A DNA stretch of 64,000 nucleotides, taken from assembly GCA_963788655.1 (NCBI GenBank), contig CAWBHS010000057.1:192189-256188 (forward strand), in the 5' to 3' direction. The stretch is from an uncultured Verrucomicrobiae bacterium (GTDB lineage Bacteria > Verrucomicrobiota > Verrucomicrobiia > Limisphaerales > JAFGQR01). A program made the position numbers and the translations under genes. Of the stretch, positions 17,305-64,000 are shown piece after piece (the first letter of the stretch is position 1; the number at the start of each line of letters is the position of its first letter). The notes beneath the pieces are model-generated. The model saw nothing but the letters and a program-made list of their open reading frames with translations, searched no databases and had not been told where the DNA came from.

Positions 17305-20300
17305 TTAATGTTCCACCACCCGATAGAACCGATGGGGTTGGCCATCGAGCATTTGCTCGAGACTGGCCGTGGTGCCGTTCAGGGTGACCTCGCCGGGCAA
17401 CACCTTCCACTGGGCTTCCATGAGATTGTCTTTATACTCGACTTGGTAATTCTTGCCGGGAACCGCTTCCCAGGACAAGACCACCCGATCCGTACTGGCG
17501 GTAATGTTCAAGGCGATAGGAGCCGGGGTAAACTCCACTTGATCCACCCAGCCTCGATCCTGGCCGATGGCGCTGCCGTAATCCTTGACATAAACCCACC
17601 ACAGTACGTGACTGCCAGCCGGGATGGCGAACGCCTGTTGCTCCCAGTCCACGTCTCCAGAAATGTTAGTCTGCTCGACGCCGCCAGCGTAGAACCGCAG
17701 GAAGTCACGGTTGGTTTCGGAAGATACCTTCCACCAGAAAGTCAGCGTGCCCGGTCCCACTACCGTGGTTTCCAGCCAGGTTTGCTGATTGTCTTCGATC
17801 ATGCCGCTGCGCGTCGCGTCTTCTCCATCGTGGGTCAGGTTGGTCTGCGCAAGCCAAACAGCGTTGCCGCCCGTGGTCCAGACCAGGTTCGTGGCGTCCA
17901 GGGCCTCCGCCAATGACAACACTGCATTCGTCACCGTCAATTGCGCCGCGCCACTGGTGACGTTCCCGGCCGTATTGCTCACCCGCACCGAATAGGCACC
18001 GGTTTGATCAACCTGCACTGTATCCAACGTCAATTGCGCGGTGGTAGCGCCGCTCACGGTGGCGCCGTTCGCCAAGTCCGCCCCGCCGAACTGCCATTGG
18101 TAGCTGAAGGGCGCGGTGCCGCTCACCGCCACCGAGAAGCTGACTGTCGCCCCGACGCGCACGTTCCGGCTCTGAGGCTGGCTCGTGATGGCCGGTGGGA
18201 GGAGAACCGTCAAGACCGCGTCCTCACTGGTGACGCTGCTGGCGGCGTTGTTCACCACGACCGAATAGGCGCCCGCTTGACCGGCTTGCACATTGGCCAG
18301 CGTCAACTGCGCCGTCGTCGCGCCGCTCACGCCCGTGCCATCCGTCAGGTTGTTGCCGTTCAGACGCCACTGATAATTGAGCGGCGGGGTGCCACTGGCG
18401 GCCACCGAGAAGCTGGCCATCGTGCCTGCAGCCACGGTCTGGCCTTGCGGCTGGCTCGTAATCTCCGGCGGCAGGATAACGGACAAGAGCGCCTCATCAC
18501 TGGTGGTGTCTCCGGCGGCATTGCTCACCACCACGGTATAAGCGCCAGCCTGGGCGGCTTGCACGCCGGTCAGGGACAAGTGAGCCGTGGTGGCACCGCT
18601 CACGCCACTGCCGTTCACCAGGTCCGCGCCGTTGAACTGCCACTGGTAGGTGAACGGTTCGGTGCCCGTGGCTGCCACGTCGAACGTAACATTCCCGCCC
18701 AACGCCACGTTTTGGCTCGCCGGCGGGCTGGTGATTTCCGGAGTCATCGTCATGGTGACAATGGACAAACGGGCGCGCGAACTGACGATGCTGCCGGCCG
18801 CATTGCTCACCACGACCGAATAGTTGCCAGCTTGGGCCAACGGCACGTTGCCCAGACTCAAATAGGCCATGGTGGCGCCGCTGACGTTGCCGCCGTTCAC
18901 CAGATTGGTCCCGTTGAACCGCCATTGGTAAGCCAGCGGCGGCAAGCCCGTAGCGGACACGCTGAAGGAAATCGATTCGTTAGTGAGCACCGTCACACTG
19001 CGCGGCTGTTCCAGAATCGTTGGCAGGCGGTTCTGCGTAAAATTGACCGTGGCAAAGTCGTCGCCAGTGGCAACCGCTTGCGAACGGCCTGTCACCGCCA
19101 CATGCCCGTCGTTCGCGACTGCAATGGCGTTGGCCACGTCCGCCAACCCAGCAAAGTCGTAACTCATCGTCCAGGCTTGATTACCTTGGGTGGTGTATTT
19201 AACCACCAGATAATTTGTGTTGCCCGCGGTCTCCGTGGAACCTGCCACGAACGCGTTACCGGCCAAATCCAACGCCAACGAGGTGGCGTTGTCGTCACCG
19301 GCACCGCTATAGCCAATATCCCATTGTTTGTTGCCGGCGGCATCATACTTGATCGTGATCCAATCCCGGCCGTTGGCGGCGGTGGTGACAGTTCCCGCGA
19401 CGAGAACATTACCCGCCGCGTCAATGGCCAGCGCCCGTGCTTCGTCCTGATCATGGGCCGGACTGTCATAACGTTTCGCCCAAAGTTGGTGGCCGGCGGC
19501 ATCATACTTGACCGTGGCAAAGTCCGCCATGGTGCCAGTGCCCCAGGACGAGCCCGTGACGATCACGTTGCCCGTCGCATCCAGCGCGATGGCCGTGGCC
19601 ATGTCGGTTTGCACGGCGGGGCCCGAATACGTGGCCACCCACAGCACGTTGCCGGCGGAATCGTATTTCACGGTAGTAAAATCCATGCCGTTCGTCGTTC
19701 CAGTGGCGCCGCCCGTCACATACACATTGCCCATGGCATCGACGGCCAGTCCGGCAGCCTGGTCAAGATTTCCGGCCGGGCCATTGAAGCGCGCCGACCA
19801 TAGCTTGGCGCCGCTGGCATTGTATTTGACCGTGTTATAGTCATTGGCGGTGGTGCCGGTGACATAGACATTGCCGGCGCTGTCCACGACCACCTTGCAA
19901 GCGGAGTCATCACCCGCGAAGGAGAAACGCGCAACCCACAGTTGGTTGCCCTCGGATCCATACTTCACGGTGGCGTAATCGTAATTGCCGCCGAGCGATT
20001 GGCCGGTCACATACACGTTGCCAGCGTCATCCACCGTGATGGAATTGGCTGCATCGTAACCGTTACCCAGGCCGTTGTAACGCGCACTCCACAGTTTGGC
20101 GCCATCGGGCGCGTATTTGACTGTCAGATAATCGCTGCCGGACGATTCGCCCACGGAAACCCCGGTGACATACACGTTGCCGGCGTCATCCACCACCATC
20201 GCGTGCGCTTCATCGGCACCGTTGCCCGTCCCGTCGTAACGCGCGGCCCAATCGGTTTCCACATCCGCCACCAAGGTCAACGCCGCCGAAGCGCTGGTGA

Positions 20301-23300
20301 CCGTGCCATGCTGGTTGGTGACGACCACGGAATAGCTGCCGACTTGCGCGGCCTGCACATTGAGCAGGGTTAACCGGGGGGTCGCCGCACCGCTCACGCC
20401 GATGCCGTCGGTCAGGTTGGCGCCGTCGAGACGCCACTGGTAACTCAAGGGTTCGGTGCCGCCGGCGCCGACATCGAAACTCACCGTCGCGCCTGCCAAC
20501 ACAGTTTGGCTCACCGGTTGGGTGGTAATCGAGGGCGGCAGATTGACCGTCAAATGGGCGGCCGAACTCGCCACGCTGCCGGCCACATTGGTTACGATCA
20601 CCGTGTAATCACCCGCCCGGGCAGATTGAACGTTCGCCAGCGTCAGACTCGGCGTGGTCGCGCCGCTTACGCCCGTACCGTTCAGCAGGTTGGCCCCGTT
20701 GAACTGCCATTGGTAGCTCAACGGCGCGGTGCCGGTAGCGGTGACGGTAAAGGTCGCCGTTCCTCCGGCTACCACGGTGCGGCTCTGCGGCTGGCTGGAG
20801 ATCGCCGGCGGAATATTTACCGTCAACTGCGCGTTAACGCTGGTCACGCCGGCCGCCGCGTTGGTAACCATCACCGAGTAAGTGCCGGCTTGCGCGGCCT
20901 GCACGTTGGCCAAAGTCAGGTTGGGCGTGGTCGCGCCGCTCACGCCGCCACCGTTCGGCAGGATGGCACCGTTGTAGCGCCATTGGTAGCTCAACGGCGC
21001 GGAACCGCTGACGCCGACGCTGAAGGTGACGGTATCGCCCACCACCGCAGTTTGGTCGGTCGGTTGTCCGGTTATTACCGGCGAAAGGAACGCCCGCGCC
21101 TGGGTCACGGTGTACGGCTCACCCGCAATTACCAATACGCCCGTGCGTTCGGCCGGATCCGGATTTGCCGCCACGGTGTAGTTCACCGTGCCGTTACCGG
21201 TGCCGCTGGCCCCGGACGTAATGGTAAGCCAGGTATTCGTGCTGACGGCGGTCCAGTCACAACCGTCGATGGCAGTCACGCTGACTTGGGCGCTTTCCTG
21301 CCCTTCGCCATGGCTGCGGTTGGTGGGTGCAATTACGAAGGTGCAAGGCGCGCCGGACTGGGTTACCGGGAAGAGCTGGCCGGCGATATACAAGTTGCCA
21401 ATTCGCGCGAGGCCGGTGGGATTGGCAGCGACCGAGTAGGAAATGGTCCCGCTATTAGTGCCGTTGGCGCCAGCGGTGATCGTGATCCAACTGTTGGTAT
21501 TGCTCACGGTCCAACTGCACCCTTCGAGCGTCGTTAGACTAATCGCTCCGACTTCCGCGGTATGGCCATGGGAACCACTGGCAGGATTAAGGGTAAAGCT
21601 GCAATCCGCGCCGACCTGGGTCACCACGAAGGACCAGCCGCCCATTGACAGTTCCCCAACCCGAGTTAATGCGGTCGGATTAGCCGCCACGGCGTAACTC
21701 AGGGTGGTGCTGCCCGGGCCGTTGGTACTGGAGGTGATCGCGAGCCAATCGTTGGTGGTGTAAGCCGTCCAATTGCAGGTGCCACACGTAATAATGTCCA
21801 CCGAACCCGTCTCCGCCCCGGCCCCGTGGACCCGTTCCGTTGGGGCAATCGCAAACGCGCGCTGGCTCATTGTGAAGATTTGGTCGCCGATGATAAATAC
21901 GCCCGAGCGCTCGTTGACGCTAAGATTGGGCAACACGGTGTATTCAATCGGGCCGCTGCTCACTCCGTTGGTGCCGGCGGTGAAGATGATCCAATCGTTG
22001 GTGTTGATGATGGTCCACGGACAATCCGTGATGGTGGTCAGGGTTACATACGAACTGGCGCCGCCGTACCCGTGGGTGCGTTTGCTGGGCGACAAGTCGA
22101 ACGTGCAGGGAATCCCCTGCTGGCTCACCGTAAACGACAGTCCCGCCACCGCCACCACCCCGGTCCGCATCAGCGGGCTGGGATTGGCCGCGACGGAATA
22201 GTTCACCGTGCCCGGCACGGTGCCGCTCGCACCTGCTGTGATGGTGATCCAGGCATTCGTGCTGACGGCAGTCCATGGACAGCCCGGCACACCGGTGACA
22301 CTGATCTGACCGGTTGCGGCACTGGACGAATGGACGCGATTGCTTGGCGTCAGCCCATAGGTACAAGGTGCTCCGTCCTGGCTCACGGTATAGGCCTTGC
22401 CGGCAACCGTCATGACCCCGGAGCGCACCAAGTGGCTGGGATTGGCGCCCACGGTGTAGTTCACGGCGCCGTTGCCCGTGCCACTCGCACCCGAGGTGAT
22501 CGAGATCCAGGGGTTCGTGTTGACCACCGTCCACGGGCAGTTGGTGAGCGTGGTGACACCGACCTGCCCGGTGGACGAAAGGTAGCCGAAGGCTTGATTG
22601 GTCGCCGAAATCGCGAACGTGCAGGGCGAGCCAAACTGCTGCAGCAGGAACGTTTGACCGGCAATGTCCACGCCACCAATGCGATCGTTCGGTCTCTGAT
22701 TCTCTTGCACGGTGTAGTTGATGATGCCGTTGCCGGCGCCGTTGGTCAGACCGGTGAACACGATCCAGTCGTTCGTGTTGACCACGGTCCAACTGCACTC
22801 GCTCACCGTTAGCACGCTGATCTGGCCGGTCGTGGAGACGTAATCCACAATACGGTCCGTCGGCAGGAGGGTGTAGGTGCAGGGGCTGCCCAACTGGGTC
22901 ACCAAGTACGCGTTATCAGCAATGTTAAGGTAACCACTGCGCGCGTTAGGGCTATAGTTGTCGGTGGTCGTGTAGCGCAACGTCGCCGAGCCAAGCCCAC
23001 TGGCGCCGGCGGTGATCGTGATCCAACTGTTACTGTTGATGGTCACCCAACTACATTCGTTACTGGTGGCAACGCTCACCAAACCGGCTTCAATGCCGCT
23101 GCCGTGCAGACGGTTGGTGGGGGCAATGGCAAACGTGCAGGGCGCGCCATCCTGGGTCACCGGGAAGGCCTGGCCGGCGATGGTCAACGTGCCCGTGCGC
23201 GGGGCGGGAATCGGATTGGCCGCCACGGTGAAGGTCACGATGCCGTCCCCCGAACCGCTGGCCCCGGCGGACACCGCCAGCCAGGAGTTCGTGCTGACCG

Positions 23301-26300
23301 CCGTCCACGCACAACCCGGGATGGTGGTGACACTCACCTGGCCGGTAGCACCTTCATACCCGCTCGTGCCATTGGCCGGCTCCAGCGTGAAGGCGCAGGC
23401 GGCGCCCAATTGGTCGATGGTGAAGGTCTGGCCGGCAAGGGTCATCATGCCCGTGCGCGCGATGGCGGTGGGGTTGGCCTCGACGACGTATTCCACCGTC
23501 CCGCTGCCAATGCCGTTGGTGCCCGCGATAATTTCGATCCAGTCGTTGGTATTGTCCGTGGTCCAGGTGCATCCGGTAATGGTCGTCACGGTCACCTGTC
23601 CCGTTTCAACGAGATCGCTGTGGACCCGGTTGGCCGGGGTGAGCGCAAACGTACACGGCGCGCCGGTCTGACTAATGTCGAAGGTTTGCCCGGCAATCAC
23701 CACCGTGCCCGAGCGGCCATTGGCGTTCAAATTCTCGCCCACCGAATAATTCACGTTGCCGCTGCCGGTACCGTTGGCGCCGGAACTGATCGTGATCCAG
23801 GAATTAGTATTGACCACGGTCCAGTCGCACCCGTTGAGCGTCGTTACCGTCACCAATCCATTGGCGGCCTGGTAACCGTGTGAGGCGCTGGTCGCTGAAA
23901 GCGTGAAGTCACATGGGGCGCCGGATTGGCTGACGGCAAAGGCCTGGCCAGCAATCAGGAGGTTACCGGTGCGCGCGCTGCCGTTGGGATTGGCCGCGAC
24001 CCGGTAGCTGACGCTGCCATTATTCGTGCCGTTGAGGCTTGAGAGAATGGTGATCCAACTGTTGGAATTACTCACCGTCCAACTGCACCCGGTGATGGTC
24101 GTCACGTTGATCGAACCGGTTTCTTCAATATAACCATGGTTTCGGCTGTCTGGGGTCAGCATGAACGTGCAGGGAGCACCCGCCTGATTCACCGTGTATT
24201 GTTGGCCGGCAATGGTGAGTACCGCCGAGCGGGCGATGGCCGTCGGATTGGGCGCCACGGCGTACTGCACGTCGCCGCTGCTGACCCCGTTCGCGTTGGC
24301 GGTGATCGTAATCCAGGCGTTGGTATTCTCCACGAACCAGGTGCAATCATTGACCGCCGTCACGTGGACCGAACCGTTTTCCAGGCCGGAACCATGGGCT
24401 TGCTCGGTCGGTGAAATGGCATAGGTGCAAGGCGCACCCCACTGGATCAGCGGAACCGTCTTGTCCGCGATCAGCAGCACCCCGGCGCGCAAATTCGAGC
24501 TCGGATTGGCGGTCACCGAGTAGTTCACCGTCGCGTTGCCAAGGTAGTTGGTTCCCGTGGAAATCGTGATCCAGGCATTCGTACTCACGGCGGTCCAATC
24601 GCAACCACTGCTGGTCGTCACCGTAATCGTCCCGGATTCGGCGCCATACCCATGAATCAAACTGGTGGGGTTCACGGTATAGACGCACACAATGCCGGTT
24701 TGGCTGATCGTGAAGGGTTGCCCGGCAATCACCAGCACGCCGGTACGCACCCGCGGGCCTTCATTGGCGGTCACGCTGTATGCAACGGTGCCATTACCCG
24801 TGCCGCTGGCACCCGCGGTGATCGTGATCCAACTGTTGGTGTTCACCGTCGTCCAATCGCAATTGCCAACGGGCGTCACGCTGATCTGGCCGCTGTCCGC
24901 CGGGGCGGTGTGCGCCCGCTCAGTGGGTGCCAAGGTGGCGGTACAAGGAGTTGCCAACTGCGTCACGGCGTACGGCAGACCGGCAATGACGAACACGCCG
25001 GAGCGGTCAGTGAAGTTCGGATTGGCGTCCACGCTGTAGTTCACGTTGCCGGAACCAGTGCCGCTCGCGCCGGAGCTGATCGTAATCCAACTGTTGGTAT
25101 TGATGACGGTCCAATCACACCCCTCGATGGTTGTTACCAAAACCTCGCCGGCCTCCGCTCCATGACTGTGAACCCGCTGTTCCGGCGCAATCGCAAAGGT
25201 GCAGGGCGCGCCGTCTTGATTCACCGTGAACTGCTGGTCGGCGACGGTTAGCACGCCCGAGCGCGCGATGGCCGTAGGATTGGCGTCCACCGAATAGCTT
25301 ACGTTACCGTTGCCCGTGCCACTGCCGCCGGCGGTGATCGTGATCCAACTGTTCGGATTACTGACCGTCCAATCGCAGCCATTGAGCGTGGTCACGCTAA
25401 ACTGGCCGGCGCCGCCTTCGTAACCGTGAGGGCGATTGGCTGGCGCCAGCGCGAAGGTGCAGGGCGCGGCCGCTTGTTCTACGGTGAAGGTCTGATCGGC
25501 AATGGTCACCATCCCGGTGCGCGGCAGGCCATTGGGATTGGCGGCGACCGAATAGTTCACGGTGCCACTGCCATTGCCGCTGGCGCCGGCGGTGATGGTG
25601 ATCCAACTGTTCGGGTTGCTGACCGTCCAATCGCACCCGTCCAGTGTAGTCACGCCGATCACCCCTGTCTCGAGGCCGGCACCATGAGTTTGGCCGGTTG
25701 CGGAGAGGGCATAAGTGCAAGGAGCGCCCACTTGGGTGACCGTGAACGCTTGCTCGCCAATCACCAGGACGCCCGTCCGATCAATCGCCGTCGGATTAGC
25801 GGCGACGGTGTATTCCACGCTGCCACTATCCGTGCCGTTGGCGGCCGAAGTGATAGTGATCCAAGTATTGGTATTGACCACGCTCCAGTCGCAGCCGGGA
25901 ATCGTGGTAAGGGCCACGGTGCCGGTTTCTTCGCCGGAACCATGAACCTGGCTGGTGGGCGAAAGCACGTAGGCGCAAGCCGCGCCGGATTGGGTGACCG
26001 TGAACGTTTCTCCGGCAACCGTCAGCACGCCGGTTCGTTCCAACGCGGTCGGATTGGCGGCCACCGCATAGTTCACGCGTTCGCCACCGGAACCGTTGGG
26101 ATCGGACAACAGGGTGATCCAATCGTTGGAATTGTCCACGGTCCAGTTGCAACCACTGCCGCTGCGTTCCCAGAAATCCGGATAGTTCCAACCCATGACA
26201 GGCGGGGAGAACAAATCGATACCCACAGCGTCGCTGGCTTCCATGCCGCGAAATTGAATGGTCCAGGTGAGTGAATCCGGCACCGAGGCCACCAGCGGTA

Positions 26301-32300: not shown

Positions 32301-32485
32301 CTGAAGCCCAAGGCATTTTCATCGCCCTGGGCCTCCAGAAAAACTGACAGACACTGCGTCTGTCCACGGGAAACCGTCATGTCCCCAACCCGCAAACTTC
32401 GTTCAGCGCCGAAACTGGCTGACACAAGCGTCAGCATTAACAGCGAAACGACCGCCAAATACCTTGTGTTGACTGATTCTCTCAT
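17305..32485 (-). CDS. Giant secreted modular protein A (~5,059 aa): cohesin-like, 40 BACON-like repeats, 3 Ig, SBBP propeller, 4 Ig, FWWKVSSE module, RFYRVV C-terminal domain; one apparent +1 insertion at ~31302
   Basis: Track ORFs 30560..32485 and 17305..31251 are one gene. The first leaves frame inside a repeat (...SGTGSADVS|VQRHRQ) and the second resumes it (VIGGQPFSLSQLG). Removing one G (TCG g TAC) restores ADVSYSVTANASLEGRAGTVVIGGQPF. Signal peptide MRESVNTRYLAVVSLLMLTLVSASFGA. The 13.9 kb from 31251 to 17305 is a single unbroken frame. Confidence 0.9.
17308..17523 (-). other. Shared C-terminal domain, subtype 1 (protein A): ...VVLSWEAVPGKNYQVEYKDNL...RFYRVVEH
   Basis: The last 72 aa align by eye with the last 70 aa of protein D, and more loosely with the C-termini of B and C. 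Confidence 0.65.
17530..17929 (-). other. Unassigned ~130-aa FWWKVSSE...GWVDQV module (single copy in protein A)
   Basis: LSLAEALDATNLVWTTGGNAVWLAQTNLTHDGEDATRSGMIEDNQQTWLETTVVGPGTLTFWWKVSSETNRDFLRFYAGGVEQTNISGDVDWEQQAFAIPAGSHVLWWVYVKDYGSAIGQDRGWVDQVEF. The same module occurs 15 times in protein D. Confidence 0.7.
17935..19035 (-). repeat. Four Ig I-set-like domains (protein A)
   Basis: Same YQW.FNG / SGAT...L.L.NV...AG.Y.VVV.N consensus as at 20270-21090. Confidence 0.75.
19040..20265 (-). repeat. Eight SBBP-type beta-propeller repeats (protein A)
   Basis: Eight ~50-aa units of the type A..VDDAGNVYVTG.......DY.TVKY...G..LW.ARY, matching the PF06739-like pattern. Confidence 0.7.
20270..21090 (-). 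repeat. Three Ig I-set-like domains (protein A)
   Basis: P.IT.QP..Q.V..G..V.F.V...G..PLSYQW..NG..L.....VSGATTP.LTL.NVQ..Q.G.Y.V.V.N..G.V.S..A.LTV, three times. Confidence 0.75.
21095..31978 (-). repeat. Array of 40 tandem ~86-aa (258-nt) BACON-like repeats in protein A
   Basis: I counted the units one by one. Consensus: C.Y.L.P....HG.....G.V.VTT...C.W.VVNTN.WITITSG.SGTGNG.V.Y.V..NP....R.G.L.I.G..F.V.Q.G. Nearly every unit has two conserved Cys. Some units form 3-unit super-repeats (THGYG type / LDNT type / IDAG type). Confidence 0.75.
26165..26740 (-). other. ~190-aa unassigned domain nested inside one BACON-like repeat of protein A
   Basis: One unit is split: CNYTLSADAMIHGAGAENGSVDVVPDG [GWALKTNSLGPVDFAARMEAAQRTVNGTETNVVFDGLVYD...IDLFSPPVMGWNYPDFWERSGS] GCNWTVDNSNDWITLLSDPNGSGGERVNYAVAANP. 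Confidence 0.7.
31985..32404 (-). other. Cohesin-like domain (protein A, N-terminal)
   Basis: LRVGDMTVSRGQTQCLSVFLEAQGDENALGFSLNYDPALLTFVSASLGSG...VVVDVCFAAAPGTSTVATPVTLGDQPIGREVSDEFATPL. It shows the cohesin pattern (set of variants -> G.S..L.YDP..L.FVS...G) and is clearly paralogous to 36743-37168 and 57400-57828. Confidence 0.6.
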
Positions 32486-32675
32486 ATTTCGATCCCATTT
32501 ATTGCCAATCCTTTAAATAGTCGGCTGCCAGCCGGTTTTCTGAAATCCGTAAGACCCCTAAGCCGGCCATCGGGGAAATACCTAAAAGGCTCTCCGGGCA
32601 ATTGCGGTACGGCGCGGCTCGCCCCGCTTAACGCGGTAATCCGGGATTTGTTCCTCATTGGAGACTGCGTCCGGG

Positions 32676-36404: not shown

Positions 36405-36529
36405 TCGTCACTGGATTCGGAAATTCGTAAATCCCCCCGGCGCGCCCTCCGCAGATTCGCGGCGCGCGGGGACGGGGATTTGCTGAAACTGGAACATGAT
36501 CGCGCATTGCCATGATTGGTTCGCACTGG

Positions 36530-52500: not shown

Positions 52501-55500
52501 GTACTGATGGCCAGACTGTAGGGATTGCGCACCACGACCGAATACGAGCCTTCGTCGGCGGCCTGTACATTGGCCAGAGTCAGCGTGGGAGTGGTCGCCC
52601 CGCTGACATTGACGCTGTCGGCCAGGTTCACTCCGTTCACGCGCCATTGGTAACTCAACGGCGCCGAACCCACGGCGGCTGAATTGAAGGTAACCGTGGC
52701 GCCGGGGCCAATGTTCTTGTTGACCGGCTGAACCGTAAGCACCGGCGGGGTGGGGCCGGACGAAGGAATGTACTGCACCTGGTCCACCCAGCCGCGATCC
52801 TGCCCGTTGGATCCGCTAACGTCTTTGGCATAAACCCAGCGTAACACTTGGTTGCCCGCCGGCAGTTCAAAGGTGAGCCATTGCCAATCAACTTCCCCCG
52901 AGATCGCCGCCAAACTGGCGTCATTGACCGTGAACTGCAACACATCCCGATTGGTTTCCGAAGAAACCTTCCACCAGAACCGGATGGTGCCCGGCCCGGT
53001 GAGCGCCACCTCAAGACTGGTGATCTGACCATTCCCGATGGCACCGCTGCGGGCGGCGTCGATGCCATCGTGTGACAAGTTGGTCTGGGCCACCCAGGGC
53101 GTGGTCAGACTGGTGAGCCAATTCAAGTAGGTGGCGTTGACCGCTTCCGCCAAGGTCAACGCCGCGGCGACGGAGAGATTGGCCGGGGTACTGATGGCGG
53201 CGCCGCACCGCGTTGCTCACGACTACCGTGTAGGCTCCCGCGTGGGCGGAGCGCACGTTCGAGATGATCAGATGAGGGGTGGTCGCGCCGCTGATACTGC
53301 CACCGTCCACCAGTTGTTCCCCGTTGAACCACCACTGATAACTTAGCGGCGGCGTGCCCGAAGCGGCCACGGTGAAGGACACCGTGGCGCCTTCGCTCAC
53401 GCTTTGACCGAGCGGACTGCTGGTAATTTGCGGCGGGGTGAACACCGCCAGATGCGCATCGGCACTGGCCACACTGCCCACGGCGTTCGCGACCATCACC
53501 GAATAGGCGCCGGCCTGTTCGGCCTGCGCGTTGCCCAGCGTCAGCGTCGGTGTGGTGGCGCCACCAACACTACCGCCGTCATTCAGGTTCATCCCGTTGA
53601 ATCGCCATTGGTACGTCAACGGCGCCGTGCCGCTGGCCTCGACCGAAAAGACCACGTTGCTGCCCGCCTGCACATTCAAATTCAAAGGCTCAGTGACAAT
53701 GTCCGGCGGCGTACTCACGGTCAGCAATCCGTAAACCTTTTCATGGGTCACCTTGGTTTGCGCGATCCAGGACGCGTCACCGCCCATGCTCAATGTCAAA
53801 TACGGTGCGTCCACCGCGTTGGGCAAGGTCAATACAGTCAACACGGCTTGAGCGCTGGTCGTCATACCGCTCGCGTTGCTGACCACCACCGAGTAATGGC
53901 CGGCGTCAACCGCCTGCGCATCGTTTAACATCAAGGTGGCCGTCGTGGCGCCGTTGATCGAACCGCCATCGGCCAGCGGCATTCCCGCGCGCTGCCATTG
54001 GTAGCTCAACGGCGCCGTGCCGGCGGCTTCCACGGTGAAGCTGACTGCCGCGCCTTCGCCGACACGTTGGTTGGCGGGCTGCGTCGTAATCAACGGAGCC
54101 ACCGTCACTGCCGGAGTATATTGAACCTGGTCCACCCAGGCCGCATCCCGACCGCCGGTGTTGGCGTCGTCTTTTGAATAACGCCACTTGAGCAATTGGA
54201 TGCCGGCCGGCACGGCAAAGGTCTGCTGCCGCCAATCCATTTCGCCGGAGATGCGCGCCTGCTCGATGCTGCCCACATAGAACCGCAATTGATCCTTGTC
54301 CTGCTCCGAAGAAACCTTCCACCAAAAGCTCACAGTGCCGGGGCCTTCGACCCACGTTTCCAAACGCGTGTTCTGACCGTTGGTGATGACCCCGCTGCGC
54401 GCCGCATCCGCCGCGTCGTGCGCAAATTCAGCTTGCGGAATCCAGGCGGCGTCGCCGGCCACGTCCATCGTCAGAGCGGGGGCATCCACCGCTTCGGCCA
54501 AGGTCAGGGTCGTCAGCAGCGCGTTGGGGCTGGTAACGCTGCCCACCGCGTTGGTGACTACCACCGTGTAGCGCCCGGCCTGGGCCGTGGTCACATTGGT
54601 CAACGTGAGGGTGGCGGTGTTGGCGCCGCTGATCTGTTCGCCATCGAAGAGGTTCGTGCCGTTAAGTTGCCATTGGTAATTCAAGGGGGACGTTCCGCTG
54701 GCCTCGACGTTGTAAGTAACGGTCGCCCCCGCGGGCACGCTTTGGTTTAATGGCGCACGGGTGATGATGGGCACGGTCGGACCGCCGTCGGGGAGATATT
54801 CCACCTGATCCACCCACCCGGCGTCCTGCCCCCCGGTGCCGGTGTCGTCCTTCGAATAACGCCACTTGAGCAACTGGAGGCCGGCCGGCACCGGATACGA
54901 TTGCCATTGCCAATCGGTTTCCCCGCTAATGCGAGCCATTTCGTCGTTGCCCACGTAGAAGCGCAATTGGTCGTTCTCCGGTTCCGAGGAAACCTTCCAC
55001 CAGAAGCTGACTGTGCCGGACCTTCGACCCAGGTTTCCAGCCGCGTGTTCTGGCCATCGGTGATCAAACCACTGCGGGCCGAGTCGGGCCGGGCAACCGC
55101 GCCTTCCACGTCTTCGCTGCTGGCGGAGCCGGCGTCGTTGCTCACGCGCACCGAATAGATGCCCGCTTGCGCGGACTGCACGCCGGTGATCGTCAACGCG
55201 CTGCTCGTGGCGCCACTGATGCGGCCGCCATTGACCAGATTGGTACCGTCGTATTGCCACTGGTACTGAAGCGGGGCCTGGCCCAGGGCGCCAACGGTGA
55301 AGGTGACCGTGTCGCCCGCAACCACGCTGAAGCTGTCCGGTTGTTTGGTAATCACCGGAGCCGTGATCAACGACAGAGAGGCATTGGGACTGATCGCGGT
55401 ACCCACCGCGTTGGTGACCACCACCGAGTAAGCCCCCGCCTCGGCCTCCTGCACGTTGCTCAACGTCAGGATGTCACTGGTGGCGCCGCTGAGGTTGCCG

Positions 55501-58500
55501 CCATCGACCAGGTTGGTGCCGTGGAATTGCCATTGGTAACTTAGCGGCGTGGAACCCGCGGCGCCCACCCGGAACGTGGCGGTCGATCCGACGACCACGC
55601 GCTGGTTGGCCGGCGGATTGGCAATCATGGGCGCCGTGGTCGCGTCGGTGGGCAGATAAAACACCTGATCCACCCAGGCGCGGTCCTGGCCGGCGGACTG
55701 GCTGCCATTCTTGACATACCGCCATTCCAACGTCTGGCTGCCCGAGGGCACGTCGAACAGTTGCCATTCCCAATCGACTTCACCGGAAATGCGGAGTTGC
55801 TCCGAGCCGCCCAGATAGAACCGCAATTGATCGTTGCTCGGTTCGGAAGAAACCTTCCACCAGAAACCCACCCGGCCCGGGCCGGTGACGGTGGTGCGAA
55901 TCGCGTTGTTCTGGCCGTCGGTGATGGCTCCGCTTTGCGCGGCGTCCATGCCATCGTGTGCCACCGTTGGCTGTCCCACCCACACTGGAGTTCCGGTGGT
56001 GGTCCAGGTCAAGTTCGTGGTGTCAAGTGCTTGATCCAACGGCACCACCGGGGTCACCACCAGCACGGCGCCGGAACTGGCGAGGCCGCCGCCGAGACCA
56101 TCCACGACTACCGTGTAGGTTCCGGCTTGTGCGGCTGGCACACTGGTCAGTCGCAGCGTGGCGGTTTTCGCCCCGCTCACGTTGCCGCCATCGGTCAGAG
56201 CGGCCCCATTCAACTGCCATTGATAGGTCAATGGCGGCGTGCCCGTGGCGGCCACACTGAAGGTGACGGTACTGCCTTCGTTCACACTCTGGCTCGCCGG
56301 TTGGCTGGTAATGGCCGGCGCCACCGCGGCAAATTGCACTTGATCCACCCAGCCCCGGTCTTGCCCGCCATCGGTGCTGCCGTTCTTGTAATACCGCCAC
56401 TGCAAATCATGGCTGCCGGAATTCAGGTTGTAGGTCACGAGCTGCCAATCAACTTCTCCGGAAATCGTCAAGATCGAGGAGCCATCCACGTAGAATCGCA
56501 GCCGGTCGTTGCTGGGTTCCGAAGAAACTTTCCACCAAAAACTCAGCGTGCCCGGCCCGCTGATCGTGGCCTCGAGATAGGTGCTCTGGCCGCCAGTAAC
56601 GGCCCCGCTCCGGGCAGCGTCCACGCCGTCATGCGCGACCGCCGCTTGCCCGGTCCACGAGGCGGAACCGGTGGTGGTCCAATTGATGTTCGCCGTGTCC
56701 AGCGCCTGGGCCAACGGCAAGACCGGAGAAACAGTCAACAGCGCGTTCTGGCTGCTGACGCTACCCATCGCATTGCTCACCGTGACCGAGTAAACCCCGC
56801 CCTGCCCCAACTGCACATTGGACAGCCGCAGGGTCGTGGTCTGCGAGCCACTCACCGAGCCGCCGTCCGCCAGGTCGGCCCCGTTGAACTGCCACCGGTA
56901 ACCGAACGGCGGGGTGCCTGAGGCCGCCACACTGAAACTGACCGTCGCGCCGGCATCCACGCTCTGGCTCGCGGGTTCCTGGGTAATCGTCGGCGCCCAC
57001 GGCTCGAATTGGACACGGTCCACCCAACCGTGGTCCTGGCCGTAGGCCAGACTGCTGTTTTTGGTGTAGCGCCATTCCAACGTCTGATTGCCGGAGCCGA
57101 CATCAAACGAACGCCATTCCCAATTGACTTCGCCGGAAATACGCACCAGTTCCGAGCCGTCCGCGTAAAACCGCAAGGTGTCATTGTCCGGCTCGGAAGA
57201 AACCTTCCACCAAAAACTCACCGTGCCCGGGCCCACAACGGTGGTTTGCAACCTGGAATCTTGGCCATCGGCCACGGCGCCGCTCCCGGCAGCATCAACA
57301 AAATCGTGGGTGACGTTGGTCTGGCAGGTCCACGCGGCGCTGCCGCTGGTAGTCCAGGCGGATTGCGGCGCGTCCACGGCATCCCACAAGGCGCATTCGC
57401 CGATCACCGTCACCGTGGCATCCCAGTATTGGCCGGCAAGCGGTTGGGCAATCAGATCCAGCAATTCGCGGCCCACCGGTTGGTCGCACAGCACCAGGGG
57501 CGTTGGCACCGGCCCGCTGGCTTGCAACCCCAGGAAACATACTTCGACCACCGGCTGCATCCCGGCGGGAATGACCCGGCCTGCCGGCATCGCCAGCATG
57601 AAACCCACCTGACCCGGCACCGCCGGATTGTTGCTCACACTCAGGGATGCACCCGGCGCGCCGGCACCGGGTTGCGCCGACGCAAAAGCAAGCAAAGCGG
57701 GATCAAAGCACACACTGAAACGCAGAACATTTTCGTTGCCGTGGGCCTCCAATGTCACCGGCACACAAACCGTCTCGCCGCTGGGGATCACGGTATCTGG
57801 CACTTGCACCAAGTGGAGACCGTTGTCTTGGGAAACCAGGTAGGTCTGGCCGGCAATCTCCAAGGCACCGCTGCGCGCGGCGTTGGTATTGGCGTCCACA
57901 GTATAAACTACGCTGCCGTTGCTGAGGCCGGTCGCGCCGGAAAGGATGTTGATCCACGGGTTCGTGTTGATCACGCTCCATTGACAAGCCGGCCCGGCCG
58001 TTACCTGGAATTCGCCGGCCTCCCAGCTTTCACCGTGAATCCAACCGGTCGGAGACAGAGTGTAGGTACACGGGATTCCTGCCTGGGTCACCGTGAACGG
58101 TTGGCCAGCAATGGTCAACTCTGCGCTACGGGACGTCACAGTCGGATTGGCCGCCACCACGTAACTCACCGTGCCGGGGCCGGGGCCGGTGGCGCCGGCG
58201 AGGATGGTGATCCAACTGCTCGGATTGACGACACTCCAGTCGCAGCCGCCGATGGTGGTCACCGCCACTTCACCGGTTTCCTGCATGTAACCGTGAACAC
58301 GATTGGTCGGTGCCAGGGCGTAAGCGCAGGGCGATTGGGTCAGGGTAAACAGCTCGCCGCCAATGTCCAGCAAGCCAGTTCGCGCCGTGGCGCTGGCGTT
58401 GGGGGCCACCTGGAACGTCACGGTCCCGTTGCCGGTGCCGGTGGCTGCCGAGGTCAGGGTGATCCACGCGTTGGTATTGAGGATGGTCCAATCGCACTTG

Positions 58501-61500
58501 GTGTTGGCCAGCACGCTCACCTGGCCGGCGCCGCCAGCGTCCGGCAGGAGTTGCGCGCTCGGCGCGATGGCCACCGAACAATTGGTACCCCATTGGCTCA
58601 TGGCGAACACCTGGTCGGCGACCACCAAGTTGCCGGTGCGCATCCGGGCGCTCTGATTATCCGTGACGGAATAGCCAATGGTGGTGTTGCCCACACCACT
58701 GGTAGCGGAAGTGATGGTGATCCAATTGTTGGTATTGTCCACCGTCCAAGAGACAAGGATCTTTGGTGTAAAGATTGATCGTGCCGGTCGAAGCGCCGTA
58801 GCCATGAAAGCGATTGGTCGGCGACAACGAGTAGGTGCAGGCCACGCCCAATTGGGTAATCGGGAACATGTCTGGTCACCGATGAACACTGCGCCTGCCC
58901 GCGGGCTGGTCGTCGGATTATCGGCCACCGCGTAGGCGACCTGCCCGCTGCCGGTGCCGGTCGCCCCGGAGAGAATCGTGATCCAACTATTCGTGGAGGA
59001 AGCCGTCCAATTGCAATTACCGCCGGTGACTTCCACGCTCCCACTGGTTGCTCCGTAGCCGTGGACCCGATCCTGCGGGGACAACTCGACCGGACAAAGG
59101 GTGACTTTTACGGCCACCGGAGCGGAAACCGCTTCGGCACCCGCCGGATCGGCAACCCGGGCCCGGACCAACCGGCTGCCAAGGGTCTGGTAACGGTTGG
59201 TGTAAAAGAGACTCTGCACCGGCGGGGTGTCAAAATAGCCGTCGCCGTTGAGATCCCATTCGACTTCAATCAGGGACGAACTGTGCTCCGGATCCGTGGT
59301 GCCCGAGGCGTCGAAAACCACCTCCTCACCCAAGGCGGGCGTGGCCGGAGTGATTTTGATGATCGGCCAGGGCGCATGGTTCACCACCGGCGTCAATTGG
59401 ATCGTGGTGCTGACGCTCCGCTGGTTGCCCTGGCGGTCCAGGACGGTGACCGTATAGTCGTTGGCCTGCGCCGGATTGTAGAACGGCGTGCTGAACGTCC
59501 GGGTTACGTTGGTGCCCGTGAGCACCATTTCGTCCACGAGCGTCCACTCAAAATTTTCGTTCCAGGACAGCAGCGCCGCCGACAGTCCCCCGACATCCGC
59601 AGCGGTAAAAGTGATTTGCACGACGCCCCGCACGGGGGCATTGGTGCCCGCGGTGATCACCGTCACATTGGGCTTGGTATCGTCGGTGACCAGCGTGCCC
59701 GGGTTGAAGAAGGGATGGACGTTCAAGGCCAACGCGGCTCCGTAGGACAACCGGGTGTAGTTGAAGGGATACAGGCGGGAAAAAAGCGCGCCCCGGATTC
59801 CCCGAAAGCCATGGCCCATCAGATTGCCGTTGAAGTTCTCGTCGTTGCGATAATCGTGAATCAGCCCGAACGCCTCCGCCAGGTGCTGCATGCCGCCGCC
59901 CAACGCGGCCGAACTGATGCTGCTCAGCGAGGTGCCTTCATACCAGGAGAAGGATACGTCCTGTTTGAGCGGATAGGGGCCGAGCTCCGGCAGGACCAGA
60001 TTGTTGTAAATGACATTGTTCGTCAAGTAGGCCGGCAGGCAGCGGATCAGGGAATCGCTGCCCATCATGGCCCACCCGGCATTCCGGCTGGAATCGCCAT
60101 AATTGTCGGCCGCATCCAGTTTCCCAGAGATGAAACCGTCACTGTTCTCGACATGGGTTTCGGGGACCATCCACCACACTTCGCCGGACGCACCCACTGA
60201 CAGTCCGGCGGCCTGCACCGCATCCACGACCCGCTGGCCGGTGATGTCGCCCCGCAAATAGCTGTCCGTTTGGGGCAAATGCACCGTGTGGATCAGGGGC
60301 GTCACCCCATCGGCCTCCGTCTCGAACCCGAAGGTCTTCGGGCCAAATCCATTCCGTTCCATCTGCTCGCGAAACCAGTCGCGGTAAAGCTGGATCGCGT
60401 TTTGGAGGCTGGCCACGGCATTGCTCTGGGCCACCCGGTTGGTCGGGATCAAGTAAGCCACCCGCACCAACGCGGCGTTGAATCCAGCAGCAACGTCAAT
60501 CGCGACGATGTTGGTGGCCACCGTGTAATGCTCCAGGTCATTGGGCGTGAAGATGACGGTTAACAACTGGTTGTTCCCCACGGGCAACACGGTGCCGACC
60601 GGGGGCGTATAAGCGAAGGAGCCCGGCACGTTGGCGGTGGCATTGAGTTGAAGGTCGCTCAACGGTGTCCCGCTCATGATGGCGGCCGGTTTGGCCCAGG
60701 TAATAATGGGCACCACCTTGCCCCCGCTGGTGACGTTGATGGTGACGCTCTGCATGGCGGCAAGGTAATTCACACTGTCGGCCGGGGTGAAGGTCACTGA
60801 CAAGATTTGGCCGCTGCCGGCGCTCAAAACGGTGCCCGCCGGCGGGGTATAAACAAACGTGCCCGGGACGTTGGCGGTGGCGTTGAGTTGCTCCACGCTC
60901 AAGGCGATCCCGTTGGTAATATCGGCCGGGGGCGCCCAGGTAATGACGGGCAGCGCCGGCGACACATTAATTGCCACGCTCTTGGTGGCGATCACGTAAT
61001 TGCCGGAGTCTGCCGGCGTGAACGTGGCGGTGAGGGTCTGCCCATTGCCGGCGTTGAGCAGGGTTCCCGGGAGCGGATTGTAACCAAACACGCCCGGGAC
61101 ATTTGCCGTGGCATTGAGCTGGGCCGCGCCCAACTGCGTTCCGTAGGTGATGGCCGCGGGATTGGCCCAAGTGATCGCCGGCATGGCTTTCAGCACGTTG
61201 ATGGTCACGGTCTGCGTGACTACCGAATATTGGTTGGTATCTTGCGGCGTGAAGACGACCGACAAGGTCTGGCCGTTGCCGGCGTTCAACGTGGTGCCGA
61301 CCGGCGGCGTATAAACGAACGCACCCGCCACGTTGGCCTTGGCTTTGAGTTGGGCGTCGCTCAATGCGGTACCATAAGTGATGTCGTTCGGGTCGTACCA
61401 GTTCACCAGCGTGCCGGCGGTCCGCAGCCATAGCGGCCCCACGTCCACGGCCGCCAACGGCGGGTTGGTGATAGCCGCGGCGGACAATTGATCGCAGCCC

Positions 61501-63023
61501 ACGTCTTTGGCCGCCGGCCGGAACTGGCCTTCCATATCCACCGTTACGTAATCATAATTCCCCTGGGCGGCGCCGAGTGCGGGACTGTTGGTGGCGGGAC
61601 GCCACAGGCCGTCGGGGGCCAACTCCAGCAATGGATCGACCATGGTGATGCCGCTGTTGGGCGGAATGCGCAGGGTGGCGCCATACATGATGTTGCCCTG
61701 CCAGAACATGTTCACCGGCTCGAGACGCTGGTCCACAAGCTTGTTGGTGGTGTAAACGACATTGTTGGCAATCGTGCAATCCAACGGCGGGAGCGTCGTC
61801 GTTTCCGAGGTGCCGGTCAGCGTCGCCTCCAGCCCGATCAGGATGCTGTCATCGCAGTTGACAAACGTGTTGAAAGCCACGGTGGCACGTTTGACCTGCA
61901 AGTAACCGTTCTGAGGACTGTTGATCAATCCCTGCATCAGGGCCAGAGAGGCGTGCGACGCCGAGCCGGTCAGGTCCACGAAATAGTTGTCATAGATTTT
62001 ATGGTCCTCGCCGCACACCCGGACCCCACCGGTAAGCGGTTTACCGTTACCAAAGAAGTAATTGCCCTCGACGACGGAGCCGTTGCCATGACGCAAGGTC
62101 AGGGCACCTTCGCATTCGAAGAAGGTGTTGCCGCGATAGGTGTTTTCGCCGGACTTGCCCGAGACCACTTCGACATCACCGTCGCACTGCTCGAAGAAAT
62201 TGTACTCCACCAGGGCGCGGGAAAGGTTCAGCGACACGTCGCTGGTGCCAATGCGGATGGTTTCCCCGCCGTTGCGTCCCAGGGGCGGCCGCGGGCCGAA
62301 ATGATTGTGGTCGATGCGATGGTAATTGGGATGGTCCGGCTGGCTGTCCACCCACACCACGAAGGTGGTGCCGCCATTGTTCTTGCCTTTGAAGTAGCAG
62401 TGGTCCACCCGGTTGCTGGTGCCATACAGCGACACCCAGAGGGTTTCCAAACTGGGATCCGCCGGGTTATAATCGATGATGGCGCACTCGGTCAGCCGAC
62501 AATTGTTGGCCACCGAGATCGTGGATTCGCGGAAGGAGATGACTTCATCGGACGTCACGAAGCCGTTTACGAATTGCAGGCCATCGACCACCAGGTAGCT
62601 GCCCGCCAGGCGAAGCCGGGATGTGCCGCTCAGGATCACCTGGCCGGGCGTTTGCGCTCGCAGCGTAATGGGATTGGCCGCGGTGCCATTGGCTTTGAAC
62701 AGGATGTCCGCGTTCTGCCAGACCCCATCGCGCATAATCAGAGTGTCGCCCGGCCGGGCGAACAACAAGGTCACGGAAAGGTCCGCCACACTCGTCACCA
62801 AAAACTCGGTGCCCCGTGCCACTCCGCTCAGCATTAGTAAGGCAAGCAGCAGGCACCAGCCGCGACCGCGGCGAAGCATTGCCCCATAAGACTTCTCTCG
62901 ACTCAACACATTCATAGTACTTCCATTCAAATTCATCGGACGCACACAGCCGTCCGGGAGGTCGTCCAATTGACCTCCCGAACACACTGCTTCATAGGGA
63001 AAAATTCCACGGCGAAACTTCAT
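46523..63023 (-). CDS. Giant secreted protein D (~5,450 aa): PL6 polysaccharide lyase, 4 MBG, unassigned globular domain, Ig/PKD, 5 BACON-like, cohesin-like, ~15 FWWKVSSE modules alternating with ~18 Ig, RFYQVV domain; about 7 apparent frame breaks
   Basis: Track ORFs 54747..63023, 53011..55260, 52332..53159, 51656..52570, 51352..51756 and 46523..51325 continue the same alternating module/Ig pattern across each junction, with breaks at ~55018, ~53207, ~52511, ~51720 and ~51365. A compensating pair lies at ~58866/~58762. Likely start is ATG 62879 (MLRRGRGWCLLLALLMLSGVARG = signal peptide); the longest ORF starts at 63023. Confidence 0.85.
46526..46735 (-). other. Shared C-terminal domain, subtype 1 (protein D)
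   Basis: IRPNLVINNTTVVLTWDTLPGKTYRIYYKDNLSDPDWNLVAGQLTLTATTAAIEDPEGKQVQRFYQVVEY aligns with the C-terminus of protein A. Confidence 0.7.
46740..57400 (-). repeat. Alternating array of ~15 FWWKVSSE modules and ~18 Ig I-set domains (protein D)
   Basis: I parsed the modules in order: M-I-M-I-M-I-I-M(partial)-I-M-I-M(partial)-I-I-M-I-M-I-M-I-M-I-I-M-I-M-I-M-I-M-I-I-M. Module consensus: LAEA.D...L.W.T.G...W..QT.V.HDG.DAA.SG.I.DGQ...L.T.V.GPGT.SFWWKVSSE..ND.LRFY.......ISGE.DW....F..P.G...L.W.Y.KD.S...G.D..WVDQV. Confidence 0.8.
57400..57828 (-). other. Cohesin-like domain (protein D)
   Basis: LHLVQVPDTVIPSGETVCVPVTLEAHGNENVLRFSVCFDPALLAFASAQPGAG...VVEVCFLGLQASGPVPTPLVLCDQPVGRELLDLIAQPL. Confidence 0.6.
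57835..59095 (-). repeat. Five BACON-like repeats (protein D)
   Basis: Same two-Cys consensus as in A and B. The unit 1/unit 2 junction (end of unit 1 through the start of unit 2) carries the compensating frame-break pair; track ORF 58657..58869 shows the true frame MFPITQLGVACTYSLSPTNRFHGYGASTGTINLYTKDPC. Confidence 0.75.
59100..59700 (-). other. Ig-like + PKD-like domains
   Basis: KPNVTVITAGTNAPVRGVVQITFTAADVGG... and LGEEVVFDASGTTDPEHSSSLIEVEWDLNGDGYFD...RLVRARVADPAG (PKD pattern). Confidence 0.55.
59700..60490 (-). other. Unassigned ~260-aa globular domain with a degenerate metzincin-like string
   Basis: ALVRVAYLIPTNRV...LYRDWFREQMERNGFG...GGGMQHLAEAFGLIHDYRNDENFNGNLMGHGF. HLAEAFGLIHD resembles HExxHxxGxxHD but lacks the canonical HExxH. 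No family assigned. Confidence 0.3.
60490..61420 (-). repeat. Four tandem MBG (YGX-type) domains
   Basis: Four ~85-aa units: ITYGT.L...QLNATANVPG.F.Y.P..GT.L.AG.GQ.L...FTP.D..NY......V.I.V. Confidence 0.7.
61500..62810 (-). other. PL6-family polysaccharide lyase domain (chondroitinase B / alginate lyase fold)
   Basis: NGGETIRIGTSDVSLNLSRALVEYNFFEQCDGDVEVVSGKSGENTYRGNTFFECEGALTLRHGNGSVVEGNYFFGNG matches the remembered PF14592 core (GGE.IR.G ... N.F..C.GE.E..S.KS..N....N.F....G.L.LRHG....V.GN.F.G). Confidence 0.7.
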
Positions 63024-63048
63024 ATAGGTTTTCAGGTCAGGGATCCGG

Positions 63049-64000
63049 TCATGGTCGGATATAGTATTCGATCATACCGGGCTGAACTGCGCTGTCCTTG
63101 TAACTGACCACACCGGCGCTGTTGGATTTGACGCTCGAAGACACTCCATTTCTGAGCAAGGTGTAAGACGTGCTCGGCGCGAGATCCCCGACGGTGTAAG
63201 AGATGCTGTGGGTGGAGGAACCCGCCTGCACCACCCAGCCCTTGCTCAGGTCGCCGCTCATGTTCCAGATGTTGATCCCCAGTAGGGCGACCCCGGCATC
63301 CGGCACCGCTTGAAAATTTCGCGTGACCACGGTCGAGGTTTTGCTGATTTGCGCCGAGTTCAACGTCAGCGAACTCTTGGTCGGCGAGAGCGTGGTGGCC
63401 AAGCCGTCCTCTTCGGGATCGAAAACGTGCCCCTGGAGATCCTCGAAGTAGGCCGAACTATATACATCCAGTTGCAGGTGGACGGTGGGTTGATCGGCGA
63501 TGGTAATACTGCCGGCGAAATTGGGGCTGCCCTCGGCACGGACCGTTTCTTCGTCGGGAATCAAGTTGCCCTGAAGCCGGTTACGCTGGCCATTGACAAA
63601 CCATAACAGACCATAGTTTTGCGTGAACAGGTTCCCCTGGAAAACGTTATCGTCGCTTTCCTTGAGAAAGATGCCCCGGCCCCGATTGCCGTGAACCACA
63701 TTGTTGAGAAACCGGTTGCGCTTGTTGCGGCCATCAAAGTCCGGCCGCGGCGGATCGCTGCCGCGATAAAGATAGATCCCGTAGTTACTGCCGAAGGAAA
63801 GACTCGTTGTCATCCGCCTCGTTGTCCAGACAGCCGACGCTCAGACGGATGCCGCTCTTGTAGTTGTACCAACAGGTATTGTGGCGAATCAACGTCCGGC
63901 TGGTTTCGAAGATGCCAATCCCCGAATCCCCATTGTGCAAGCAGGCGTTCTGCTCGACCAGCGAATCGTTGCAACTGCGGTGCAGCATGATGCCGTTGCC
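63049..64000 (-). CDS. Right-handed parallel beta-helix repeat protein (pectate-lyase fold), 5' end outside the window; one apparent frameshift near 63810
   Basis: Track ORFs 63785..63988 (...GDSGIGIFETSRTLIRHNTCWYNYKSGIRLSVGC) and 63049..63813 (NYGIYLYRGS...NNVVHGNRGRGIFLKESDDNVFQGNLFTQNYG...) carry typical N..GN...GI.L beta-helix rungs. The stop lies only 25 nt upstream of the longest gene D ORF. Confidence 0.65.

Follow-up and report, generated by a model that had tools for sequence, protein, structure and literature searches.

How do the Verrucomicrobiota, major polysaccharide degraders of soil and water, export and display large enzymes? A bearing on this question is offered by a block of giant genes on the minus strand (17305-64000) of a 64,000-nt stretch of contig CAWBHS010000057.1 from an uncultured Verrucomicrobiae bacterium (hereafter the window). 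Its five genes, here termed U, D, C, B and A in the order in which they are read, all point in one direction and are separated by 25 (U/D), 25 (D/C), 125 (C/B) and 190 nt (B/A). Once the open reading frames (ORFs) are joined across frame changes, the products of D (at least six pieces), C (three pieces), B (intact) and A (two pieces) measure ~5,500, ~3,320, 1,242 and ~5,060 aa, respectively. This bears out the layout of five consecutive genes spaced by about 25-190 nt given in a preliminary description of the block, which had put the four giants at about 5,450, 3,300, 1,230 and 5,060 aa. Its N-terminal signal peptides, too, are recognizable by eye on A, B, C and D as a positively charged n-region, a hydrophobic core and a small-x-small site.

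From the modules that these proteins share, the preliminary description had concluded that they constitute one coordinated, undescribed machinery. Profile and structure comparisons uphold one part of this claim, namely that the shared modules are truly homologous; the coordination is not supported. The inference of a single machinery fails because the module vocabulary is phylum-wide, the synteny mostly breaks down in relatives, the single cohesins are unaccompanied by a dockerin and the catalytic heads are not orphans; the locus as such does not amount to a new dedicated system. On balance, we favor the view that four giant glycan-binding stalk proteins, exported by the Sec route and evolving independently, lie side by side specifically in this lineage, with U and D being part of an alginate-like polyuronate locus. 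The host would be a Verrucomicrobiota bacterium from soil, of the subdivision 3/Limisphaerales-Verrucomicrobiales type.

The U-D pair and its probable polyuronate context

Gene D (46523..63023; this and all other features lie on the minus strand unless stated otherwise) is interrupted by at least seven frame changes and codes for a signal peptide, a polysaccharide lyase family 6 (PL6) head, an Ig-like/PKD region, five to six BACON domains, a cohesin, 16 repeats of a jelly-roll with the motif FWWKVSSE followed by one or two I-set domains, and a terminal domain named here RFYR after its characteristic strand. The Chondroitinase_B profile (PF14592) aligns with the head (61740..62798) from position 1 to 359 of its 426 and scores 342 bits, which identifies the head as the beta-helix catalytic domain of the PL6 family. 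Its closest solved relatives are the alginate lyases 7O84 (E=1e-98) and AlyGC 5GKD (E=7e-93), with chondroitinase B following at 1e-35; stand-alone enzymes that carry the annotation poly(beta-D-mannuronate) lyase share 50-66% identity with it. Colinear orthologues of D, with the same domain order, occur in two related loci, L002 (~64% nucleotide identity) and L053 (60% amino acid identity over the head).

Gene U, of which roughly the C-terminal third is visible (63049..64000), is frame-broken and runs off the end of the window; this part encodes a right-handed beta-helix with matches to the Beta_helix and NosD families. In tblastx comparisons it is 52-62% identical to a 604-aa beta-helix gene lying directly upstream of the D orthologue in L053, such that the U-D pair is conserved there. 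The best structure matches of the L053 beta-helix protein are to AlgG (4OZZ and 4NK6, E=6e-17), and we consider U likely to be an AlgG-like polyuronate C5-epimerase. With the head of D being of the PL6 alginate-lyase type and U probably AlgG-like, this end of the block is likely to be related to polyuronate loci of a known kind.

The gene order in relatives fills out this picture. In L053, a family 2 glycosyltransferase (GT2), a membrane-fusion-like protein, a UDP-glucose/GDP-mannose dehydrogenase, the beta-helix protein and the D-like gene succeed one another, while L054 has the same upstream set followed by two beta-helix genes, an Alginate_lyase (PL5-type) gene and then the PL6 protein. It is these gene orders, together with the resemblance of the L053 beta-helix protein to AlgG and of the head of D to PL6 alginate lyases, that lead us to read U-D as belonging to an alginate-like polyuronate locus; the equivalent upstream region would fall beyond position 64000 of the window. 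The relatives thereby resemble the alginate operon of Pseudomonas and Azotobacter (AlgG, AlgL) in having an epimerase-like beta-helix protein and a polyuronate lyase downstream of a GT2, a membrane-fusion-like protein and a GDP-mannose/UDP-glucose dehydrogenase-type gene. In contrast to that operon, the lyase here is of the PL6 rather than the PL5 type and is fused to a stalk of ~5,000 aa. In both relatives (L053, 61-6436; L054, 138-9777) the GT2 belongs to Glyco_tranf_2_3 and one or two AlgG-like beta-helix genes precede the PL6 genes; this would represent an alginate-operon-like gene set in the Verrucomicrobiota.

We posit that U and D lie at the distal end of a conserved locus for a polyuronate (alginate-like) exopolysaccharide, where they serve to modify and cleave the polymer. 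Here, U would act as an AlgG-like C5-epimerase on the polymer of the locus and D as a PL6 alginate-type lyase mounted on its ~5,000-aa stalk; the 16 jelly-rolls of the latter may bind the polymer, and its lyase head would trim or remodel it at a distance from the cell. A PL6 lyase on a CBM-like/Ig stalk of this length, set beside an AlgG-like epimerase, suggests that tethered enzymes organize or trim acidic exopolysaccharide.

The main rival reading is nutrient foraging, wherein D and the BACON-, PA14- and carbohydrate-binding module (CBM)-rich proteins would capture and cut exogenous acidic polysaccharides, such as microbial or algal alginate or pectin-like polymers, at the cell surface, making them a Verrucomicrobial counterpart of the surface enzymes of polysaccharide utilization loci. 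It accords with the 50-57% identity of the PL6 head to PL6 enzymes of the Fibrobacteres-Chlorobi-Bacteroidetes (FCB) phyla that are secreted by the type IX secretion system (T9SS), with the occurrence in L054 of PL5- and PL7-type alginate lyases with F5/8 type C domains, and with the BACON, PA14, CBM4_9-like and jelly-roll modules all being carbohydrate-associated. However, the conserved upstream neighbors (the GT2, the membrane-fusion protein, the sugar-nucleotide dehydrogenase and the AlgG-like epimerase) are biosynthetic, and neither transporter nor uronate-catabolism genes adjoin the block within the window. We accordingly hold foraging to be a possible account, albeit one on the unlikely side.

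Distribution of the shared modules

The combinatorial sharing of modules that first drew attention to the block is real. Cohesin-like domains are found in A, C and D; BACON repeats in A (~41 units), B (13) and D (5-6); I-set domains in A (7), C (2) and D (18); the FWWKVSSE module in A (1 copy) and D (16 copies); and the RFYR domain, exactly four times in the 64 kb, closing each of A, B, C and D. All of these occurrences are as given in the preliminary description, and on comparison the modules do not dissolve into unrelated sequences. It had also placed a catalytic head at the N-terminus of both D and C: this is correct for the PL6 lyase of D and has to be revised for the CotH kinase-like domain of C, which lies in mid-protein, the N-terminus being occupied by PA14 and Ig domains.

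Gene C (36530..46497, two frame changes) encodes a signal peptide, PA14, Ig, Big_5, Ig and DUF1349-like domains, three lamin tail domains (LTDs), CotH, a CBM4_9-like domain, three further LTDs, He_PIG, a cohesin and the RFYR domain. The CotH domain (~40439-41063; approximately residues 1,800-2,020 of 3,320) spans a frame change near 40490 and rises from 29 bits on the raw ORF to 48.9 bits after frame joining (cut-off 23.8). Flanked as it is by three LTDs on each side, it places C by colinearity in a family of giant CotH/LTD proteins of the Verrucomicrobiota. A 1,504-aa query recovers 796 scored homologues at E≤1e-10; the top ones listed are typically ~2,000-2,600 aa long and 45-62% identical over 69-99% (mostly more than 90%) of the query, are named 'lamin tail domain-containing protein', and come from Verrucomicrobiales, Limisphaerales or subdivision 3. 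Of 120 homologues, 104 end in the RFYR domain, as does C. Relative to these PA14-LTD-CotH-LTD proteins, C is extended by ~700-1,300 aa and carries a cohesin ahead of its C-terminal domain; it is an enlarged member of a ubiquitous family. Our literature search on LTD/CotH proteins found nothing relevant.

Members of the C family occur alone or as tandem paralogues. One related locus (L058, 8561-25793) has three tandem paralogues of 2,410, 2,467 and 2,473 aa on one contig, pointing to local amplification of giant genes elsewhere too. In three related loci (including L055, 6930-9265, and L056, 5713-9460) a HisKA_3 histidine kinase and a LuxR/GerE response regulator lie directly beside C-family genes. 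A pair of this kind is present in the window, too (97-1647), encoded on the plus strand, opposite to that of C, at a distance of 35 kb from the gene.

The second widespread element is the FWWKVSSE module. Its copies in D alternate with 18 I-set domains over 46772..57434, and the single copy in A spans 17530-17961, all being detected with locally built hidden Markov models (HMMs). An AlphaFold2 model of the A copy (pLDDT 92) is a jelly-roll, with CBM4, CBM22 and CBM61, the C-terminal domain of VesC and the MAM-type jelly-rolls of meprin as its Foldseek neighbors. Judged from this model the module is CBM-like; it has no match in our local copy of Pfam. Together with the RFYR domain alone it makes up small proteins of 385 aa. 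A remote database lists PF28588.1, a model absent from the local Pfam, for three homologues (P0004, P0007 and P0008); it may be a model built only recently for either the jelly-roll or the RFYR domain.

The RFYR domain itself (A, 17308-17529; B, 32679..32900; C, 36533..36754; D, 46526..46747) is an FN3-like beta-sandwich of ~75 aa. By local searches it falls into two subtypes, one in A and D (that of D ends in RFYQVVEY) and one in B and C. No Pfam or NCBIfam family in the local copies matches it significantly, Tissue_fac and fn3 scoring far below their cut-offs. A profile built from 31 copies retrieved 47,096 representatives at E≤1e-3 among 1.84 billion clusters of 50% identity, and the few matches that are named by organism come from Verrucomicrobiae, Verrucomicrobiia and Verrucomicrobiota. 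In 118 of the 150 best matches the last copy lies no more than 12 residues from the C-terminus, typically in the form RFYRxxxP. Tandem arrays, of up to ~25 copies, occur in many proteins too; the family includes proteins P0121-P0270. The RFYR motif itself is retained by the internal copies, and is therefore best viewed as a structural feature of the FN3-like fold and not as a terminal signal in its own right.

On the PL6 lyases, 32 of 120 homologues, the smallest ones, have a minimal architecture of ~565 aa with only the PL6 head and the RFYR domain. Homologues of the same head from Ignavibacteria, KSB1 and Calditrichaeota carry a T9SS tail (PF18962) instead, so that in the Verrucomicrobial enzymes RFYR occupies the place of the T9SS tail of the FCB-phylum enzymes. 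The likeness to T9SS cargo (Por_Secre_tail, PF18962/TIGR04183) extends to the tail being a terminal beta-sandwich of ~75 aa. It ends with the lack of any sequence match of RFYR to the T9SS tail models and with the occurrence of RFYR as internal tandem repeats. We rejected assignment to T9SS cargo, as neither PF18962 nor TIGR04183 was matched in Pfam searches of the whole proteins and of two isolated C-terminal domains (E≤10) or in NCBIfam searches of the tails. The Verrucomicrobiota are not known to have a T9SS. PEP-CTERM/exosortase and LPXTG sorting were likewise rejected: NCBIfam models found no match among the last 200-300 aa of the four giants, whose RFYRxxx ends lack a hydrophobic segment.

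Closing as it does thousands of secreted Verrucomicrobial proteins, the RFYR domain may contribute to cell-surface retention or passage across the outer membrane. One could go further and propose that the Verrucomicrobiota have an undescribed route of outer-membrane export or surface anchoring for which the domain serves as a recognition or attachment tag, much as the C-terminal domain does in T9SS, with the cohesins of A, C and D additionally cross-linking the fibers; this reading we deem improbable. Literature searches on the RFYR motif and on Verrucomicrobial C-terminal sorting turned up nothing relevant.

Given the 47,096 RFYR representatives, the 385-aa proteins with only a jelly-roll and RFYR, and the RFYR ends of 104/120 C and 32/120 PL6 homologues, the vocabulary is not specific to this locus. 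The order beta-helix-D-C-B-A, which the preliminary description had expected to be conserved if the block is one system, is not maintained in relatives, where only U-D is kept. In L002, unrelated genes come after the D orthologue. The closest relatives of C (62%, 50% and 52% identity; L055, L056/L057 and L058) have as neighbors the HisKA_3/LuxR pair, RNase R or two further C paralogues, and none of them has a D-, B- or A-like neighbor. Similarly, none of 48 metagenome loci carrying the cohesin shows the order C-B-A. Scanning the contigs of GTDB representatives with the middle of C gave one weak Ig-repeat locus and no close relative, the back-translated patterns used being possibly too specific. 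Judging from these comparisons, the module vocabulary is phylum-wide and the clustering lineage-specific. What is most interesting about the block is general rather than locus-specific: the large RFYR terminal family, the jelly-roll family (both lacking a model in the libraries searched) and the cohesin for which no dockerin was found are handles on protein sorting in the phylum.

Cohesins and the likeness to known systems

A, C and D have one cohesin each (31967-32410, 36731..37171 and 57384..57821, respectively); that of C lies directly before its RFYR domain. The C copy scores 27.7 bits against Pfam Cohesin (cut-off 24.1); those of A and D, detected with a local HMM (E=1e-75 for D), are below the Pfam threshold, yet Cohesin is the best-scoring Pfam family for each. 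All three are related to one another with E-values from 1e-33 to 1e-43. A profile of 26 sequences matches only cohesins in the PDB (E ~8e-4), and a modest AlphaFold2 model from a three-sequence alignment (pLDDT 64.5) has cohesins as its top 50 of 50 Foldseek matches (TM-score 0.6-0.67). Based on the Pfam score, the PDB profile matches and this model, we regard the assignment as sound. No Pfam Dockerin family is matched in any ORF piece of the block, and the calcium-loop pattern D-x-[ND]-x-[DN]-G is absent from all long minus-strand ORFs of the window.

In a rival reading, in line with the preliminary description, A-D would form one coordinated extracellular scaffold, in which the cohesins bind a partner other than dockerin, for example RFYR or another module, and so join the fibers and their enzymes in a cellulosome-like superstructure. 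Beyond the true cohesin fold and the tight, unidirectional spacing of the genes, this idea can appeal to the cohesins of A, C and D being each other's closest relatives, and to C having gained a domain that is missing from 120 of 120 members of its family, for which reason we view it as a local acquisition. It can also appeal to one metagenome locus (L046, 9187-10426) wherein a gene ending in cohesin and RFYR is followed within ~180 nt by a gene starting with a cohesin, much like a transition from C to A without B. Against it stand the lack of dockerin and calcium-loop motifs in the block, the single cohesin per protein with no scaffoldin array, the unconserved D-C-B-A order, the absence of a cohesin from B, and the recurrence of the same cohesin type in many unrelated architectures across the 48 soil loci recovered by the metagenome scan with the cohesin profile. 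We consider such a scaffold quite improbable. The mutual proximity of the cohesins, the unique copy in C and a leader motif shared by A and B (see below) suggest local duplication and domain exchange within the block.

Cellulosomal and non-cellulosomal cohesin-dockerin systems (the scaffoldins CipC and ScaB; NagJ of Clostridium perfringens) likewise place cohesin folds in large secreted modular proteins that are carbohydrate-active or carbohydrate-binding. The block differs from them in that no dockerin turned up, no protein has more than one cohesin, SLH and LPXTG anchors are without matches in A-D (Pfam and NCBIfam), the host is a diderm and a PL6 lyase stands in the place of a cellulase. 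A cellulosome-type assignment was hence set aside: the cohesin is present, dockerin partners were not found within the window and there is no multi-cohesin scaffoldin. Giant adhesins (the RTX/type I secretion system (T1SS) proteins LapA, SiiE and MpIBP) and giant proteins of the Planctomycetes-Verrucomicrobia-Chlamydiae (PVC) bacteria similarly present ligand-binding or enzymatic modules on Ig-like stalks of several thousand residues. Unlike these adhesins, A-D have N-terminal Sec signal peptides and another module set, and an RTX/T1SS assignment was rejected as Pfam gave no RTX/HemolysinCabind match or T1SS signal and all four N-termini are of the Sec type. Giant genes of PVC bacteria have been described (bioRxiv 10.1101/2023.11.21.568195), and A-D are well below the 30,000-aa Omnitrophota class of that work. 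In sum of likeness, A-D would be giant modular carbohydrate-active surface proteins of PVC bacteria, resembling scaffoldins only by their cohesins, T9SS cargo only by the position and fold of the terminal domain, and RTX adhesins only by size. As the preliminary description had held, no described secretion or anchoring system can be assigned to them.

In the view that we favor, a lineage-specific juxtaposition of independently evolving giants, A, B and C would add more glycan-binding fibers exported by the Sec route, those of A and B being BACON arrays. Domain identities and folds, family sizes, the conserved U-D pair and the unconserved D-C-B-A order are observations here, whereas the substrate, the surface location, the role of RFYR and co-transcription are inferences. 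Several observations pull the other way. The alginate-type context of U-D is carried over from relatives that are 50-60% identical, since whatever precedes U falls outside the window. The genes are co-directional with short gaps, and the terminator scan placed no terminator-like site in any of these, which leaves room for co-transcription, co-regulation and functional coupling of the five genes in this genome. The cohesins of A, C and D, at 36-50% amino acid identity, are closer than expected for unrelated acquisitions, hinting at locus-internal domain exchange and possibly at a shared partner. Finally, the internal tandem copies of RFYR keep the RFYR strand, which speaks against a pure sorting-signal role.

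Genes A and B and the state of the assembly

Gene A (17305..32485, one frame change near 31260-31310) encodes a signal peptide, its cohesin, an array of ~41 BACON units (21088-31990; Pfam and local HMMs), three I-set domains, an SBBP beta-propeller (19030-20268, from domain searches), four further I-set domains, the jelly-roll and RFYR. A 214-aa stretch without a Pfam match (26167-26808) breaks the BACON array. Gene B (32676..36404) is intact and consists of a signal peptide, 13 BACON units and RFYR.

A and B share a 21-nt leader motif with the consensus GGGG(A/T)(T/C)TTACG(A/G)ATTTC(C/A)GAA, which the window matches twice, where chance would give 0.03 matches. One copy, GGGGATTTACGAATTTCCGAA (36416..36436), lies 54 nt upstream of an ATG at 36362 in gene B, and the other, GGGGTCTTACGGATTTCAGAA (32538..32558), precedes the start codon (ATG) of gene A by 53 nt. 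Because this spacing matches that of A, we prefer 36362, which is probably the true start of B and which would widen the C/B gap to 167 nt. The motif has no match in the 58 loci retrieved for comparison, and neither copy matches an Rfam family. These sequences suggest that A and B have paralogous leaders, or a promoter or regulatory site of their own at the motif. Scans for promoters and terminators did no better than chance and put none in the intergenic gaps, and no RNA family was detected by Rfam anywhere in the window, the leader regions of A and B included.

The frame changes in A, C and D (at least ten in total) deserve comment. Domain matches, with Pfam as well as the locally built HMMs, stay in register over every one of them. 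In the left flank, housekeeping genes are split into overlapping ORFs at a frequency similar to that of the giant genes: a DPP4-type peptidase (1919-4268) and the E2 (sucB, 10228-11593) and E1 (sucA, 11511-14519) components of 2-oxoglutarate dehydrogenase. As DPP4, sucA and sucB are split likewise, we interpret the frame changes as assembly indels and not as marks of pseudogenes; the housekeeping splits show an assembly-wide indel error of about one per 4-6 kb. The preliminary description had itself named an assembly chimera of dispersed repeat-rich genes as the case that would undo it. A repeat-driven chimera is unlikely since DNA identity between repeat units amounts to only 55-65% and GC and third-codon-position GC (GC3) are uniform between block and flank; there is no sign of chimeric assembly in the block. 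That the giant genes are pseudogenes, or a mis-assembled repeat-rich pile, as their frame changes and highly repetitive sequence might have suggested, is therefore very improbable and was rejected: the housekeeping genes are frameshifted at like density, the domains remain in register, the repeats are too diverged to mislead an assembler, GC/GC3 is uniform, the C fragment of the window is recorded in the protein database on a 360-kb contig, and the D orthologues in L002 and L053 share the domain order of D.

Beyond the block, a 420-aa ORF on the plus strand (15179-16441), convergent with the end of gene A, shows a weak match (27 bits) to Rce1-like/CPBP intramembrane proteases.

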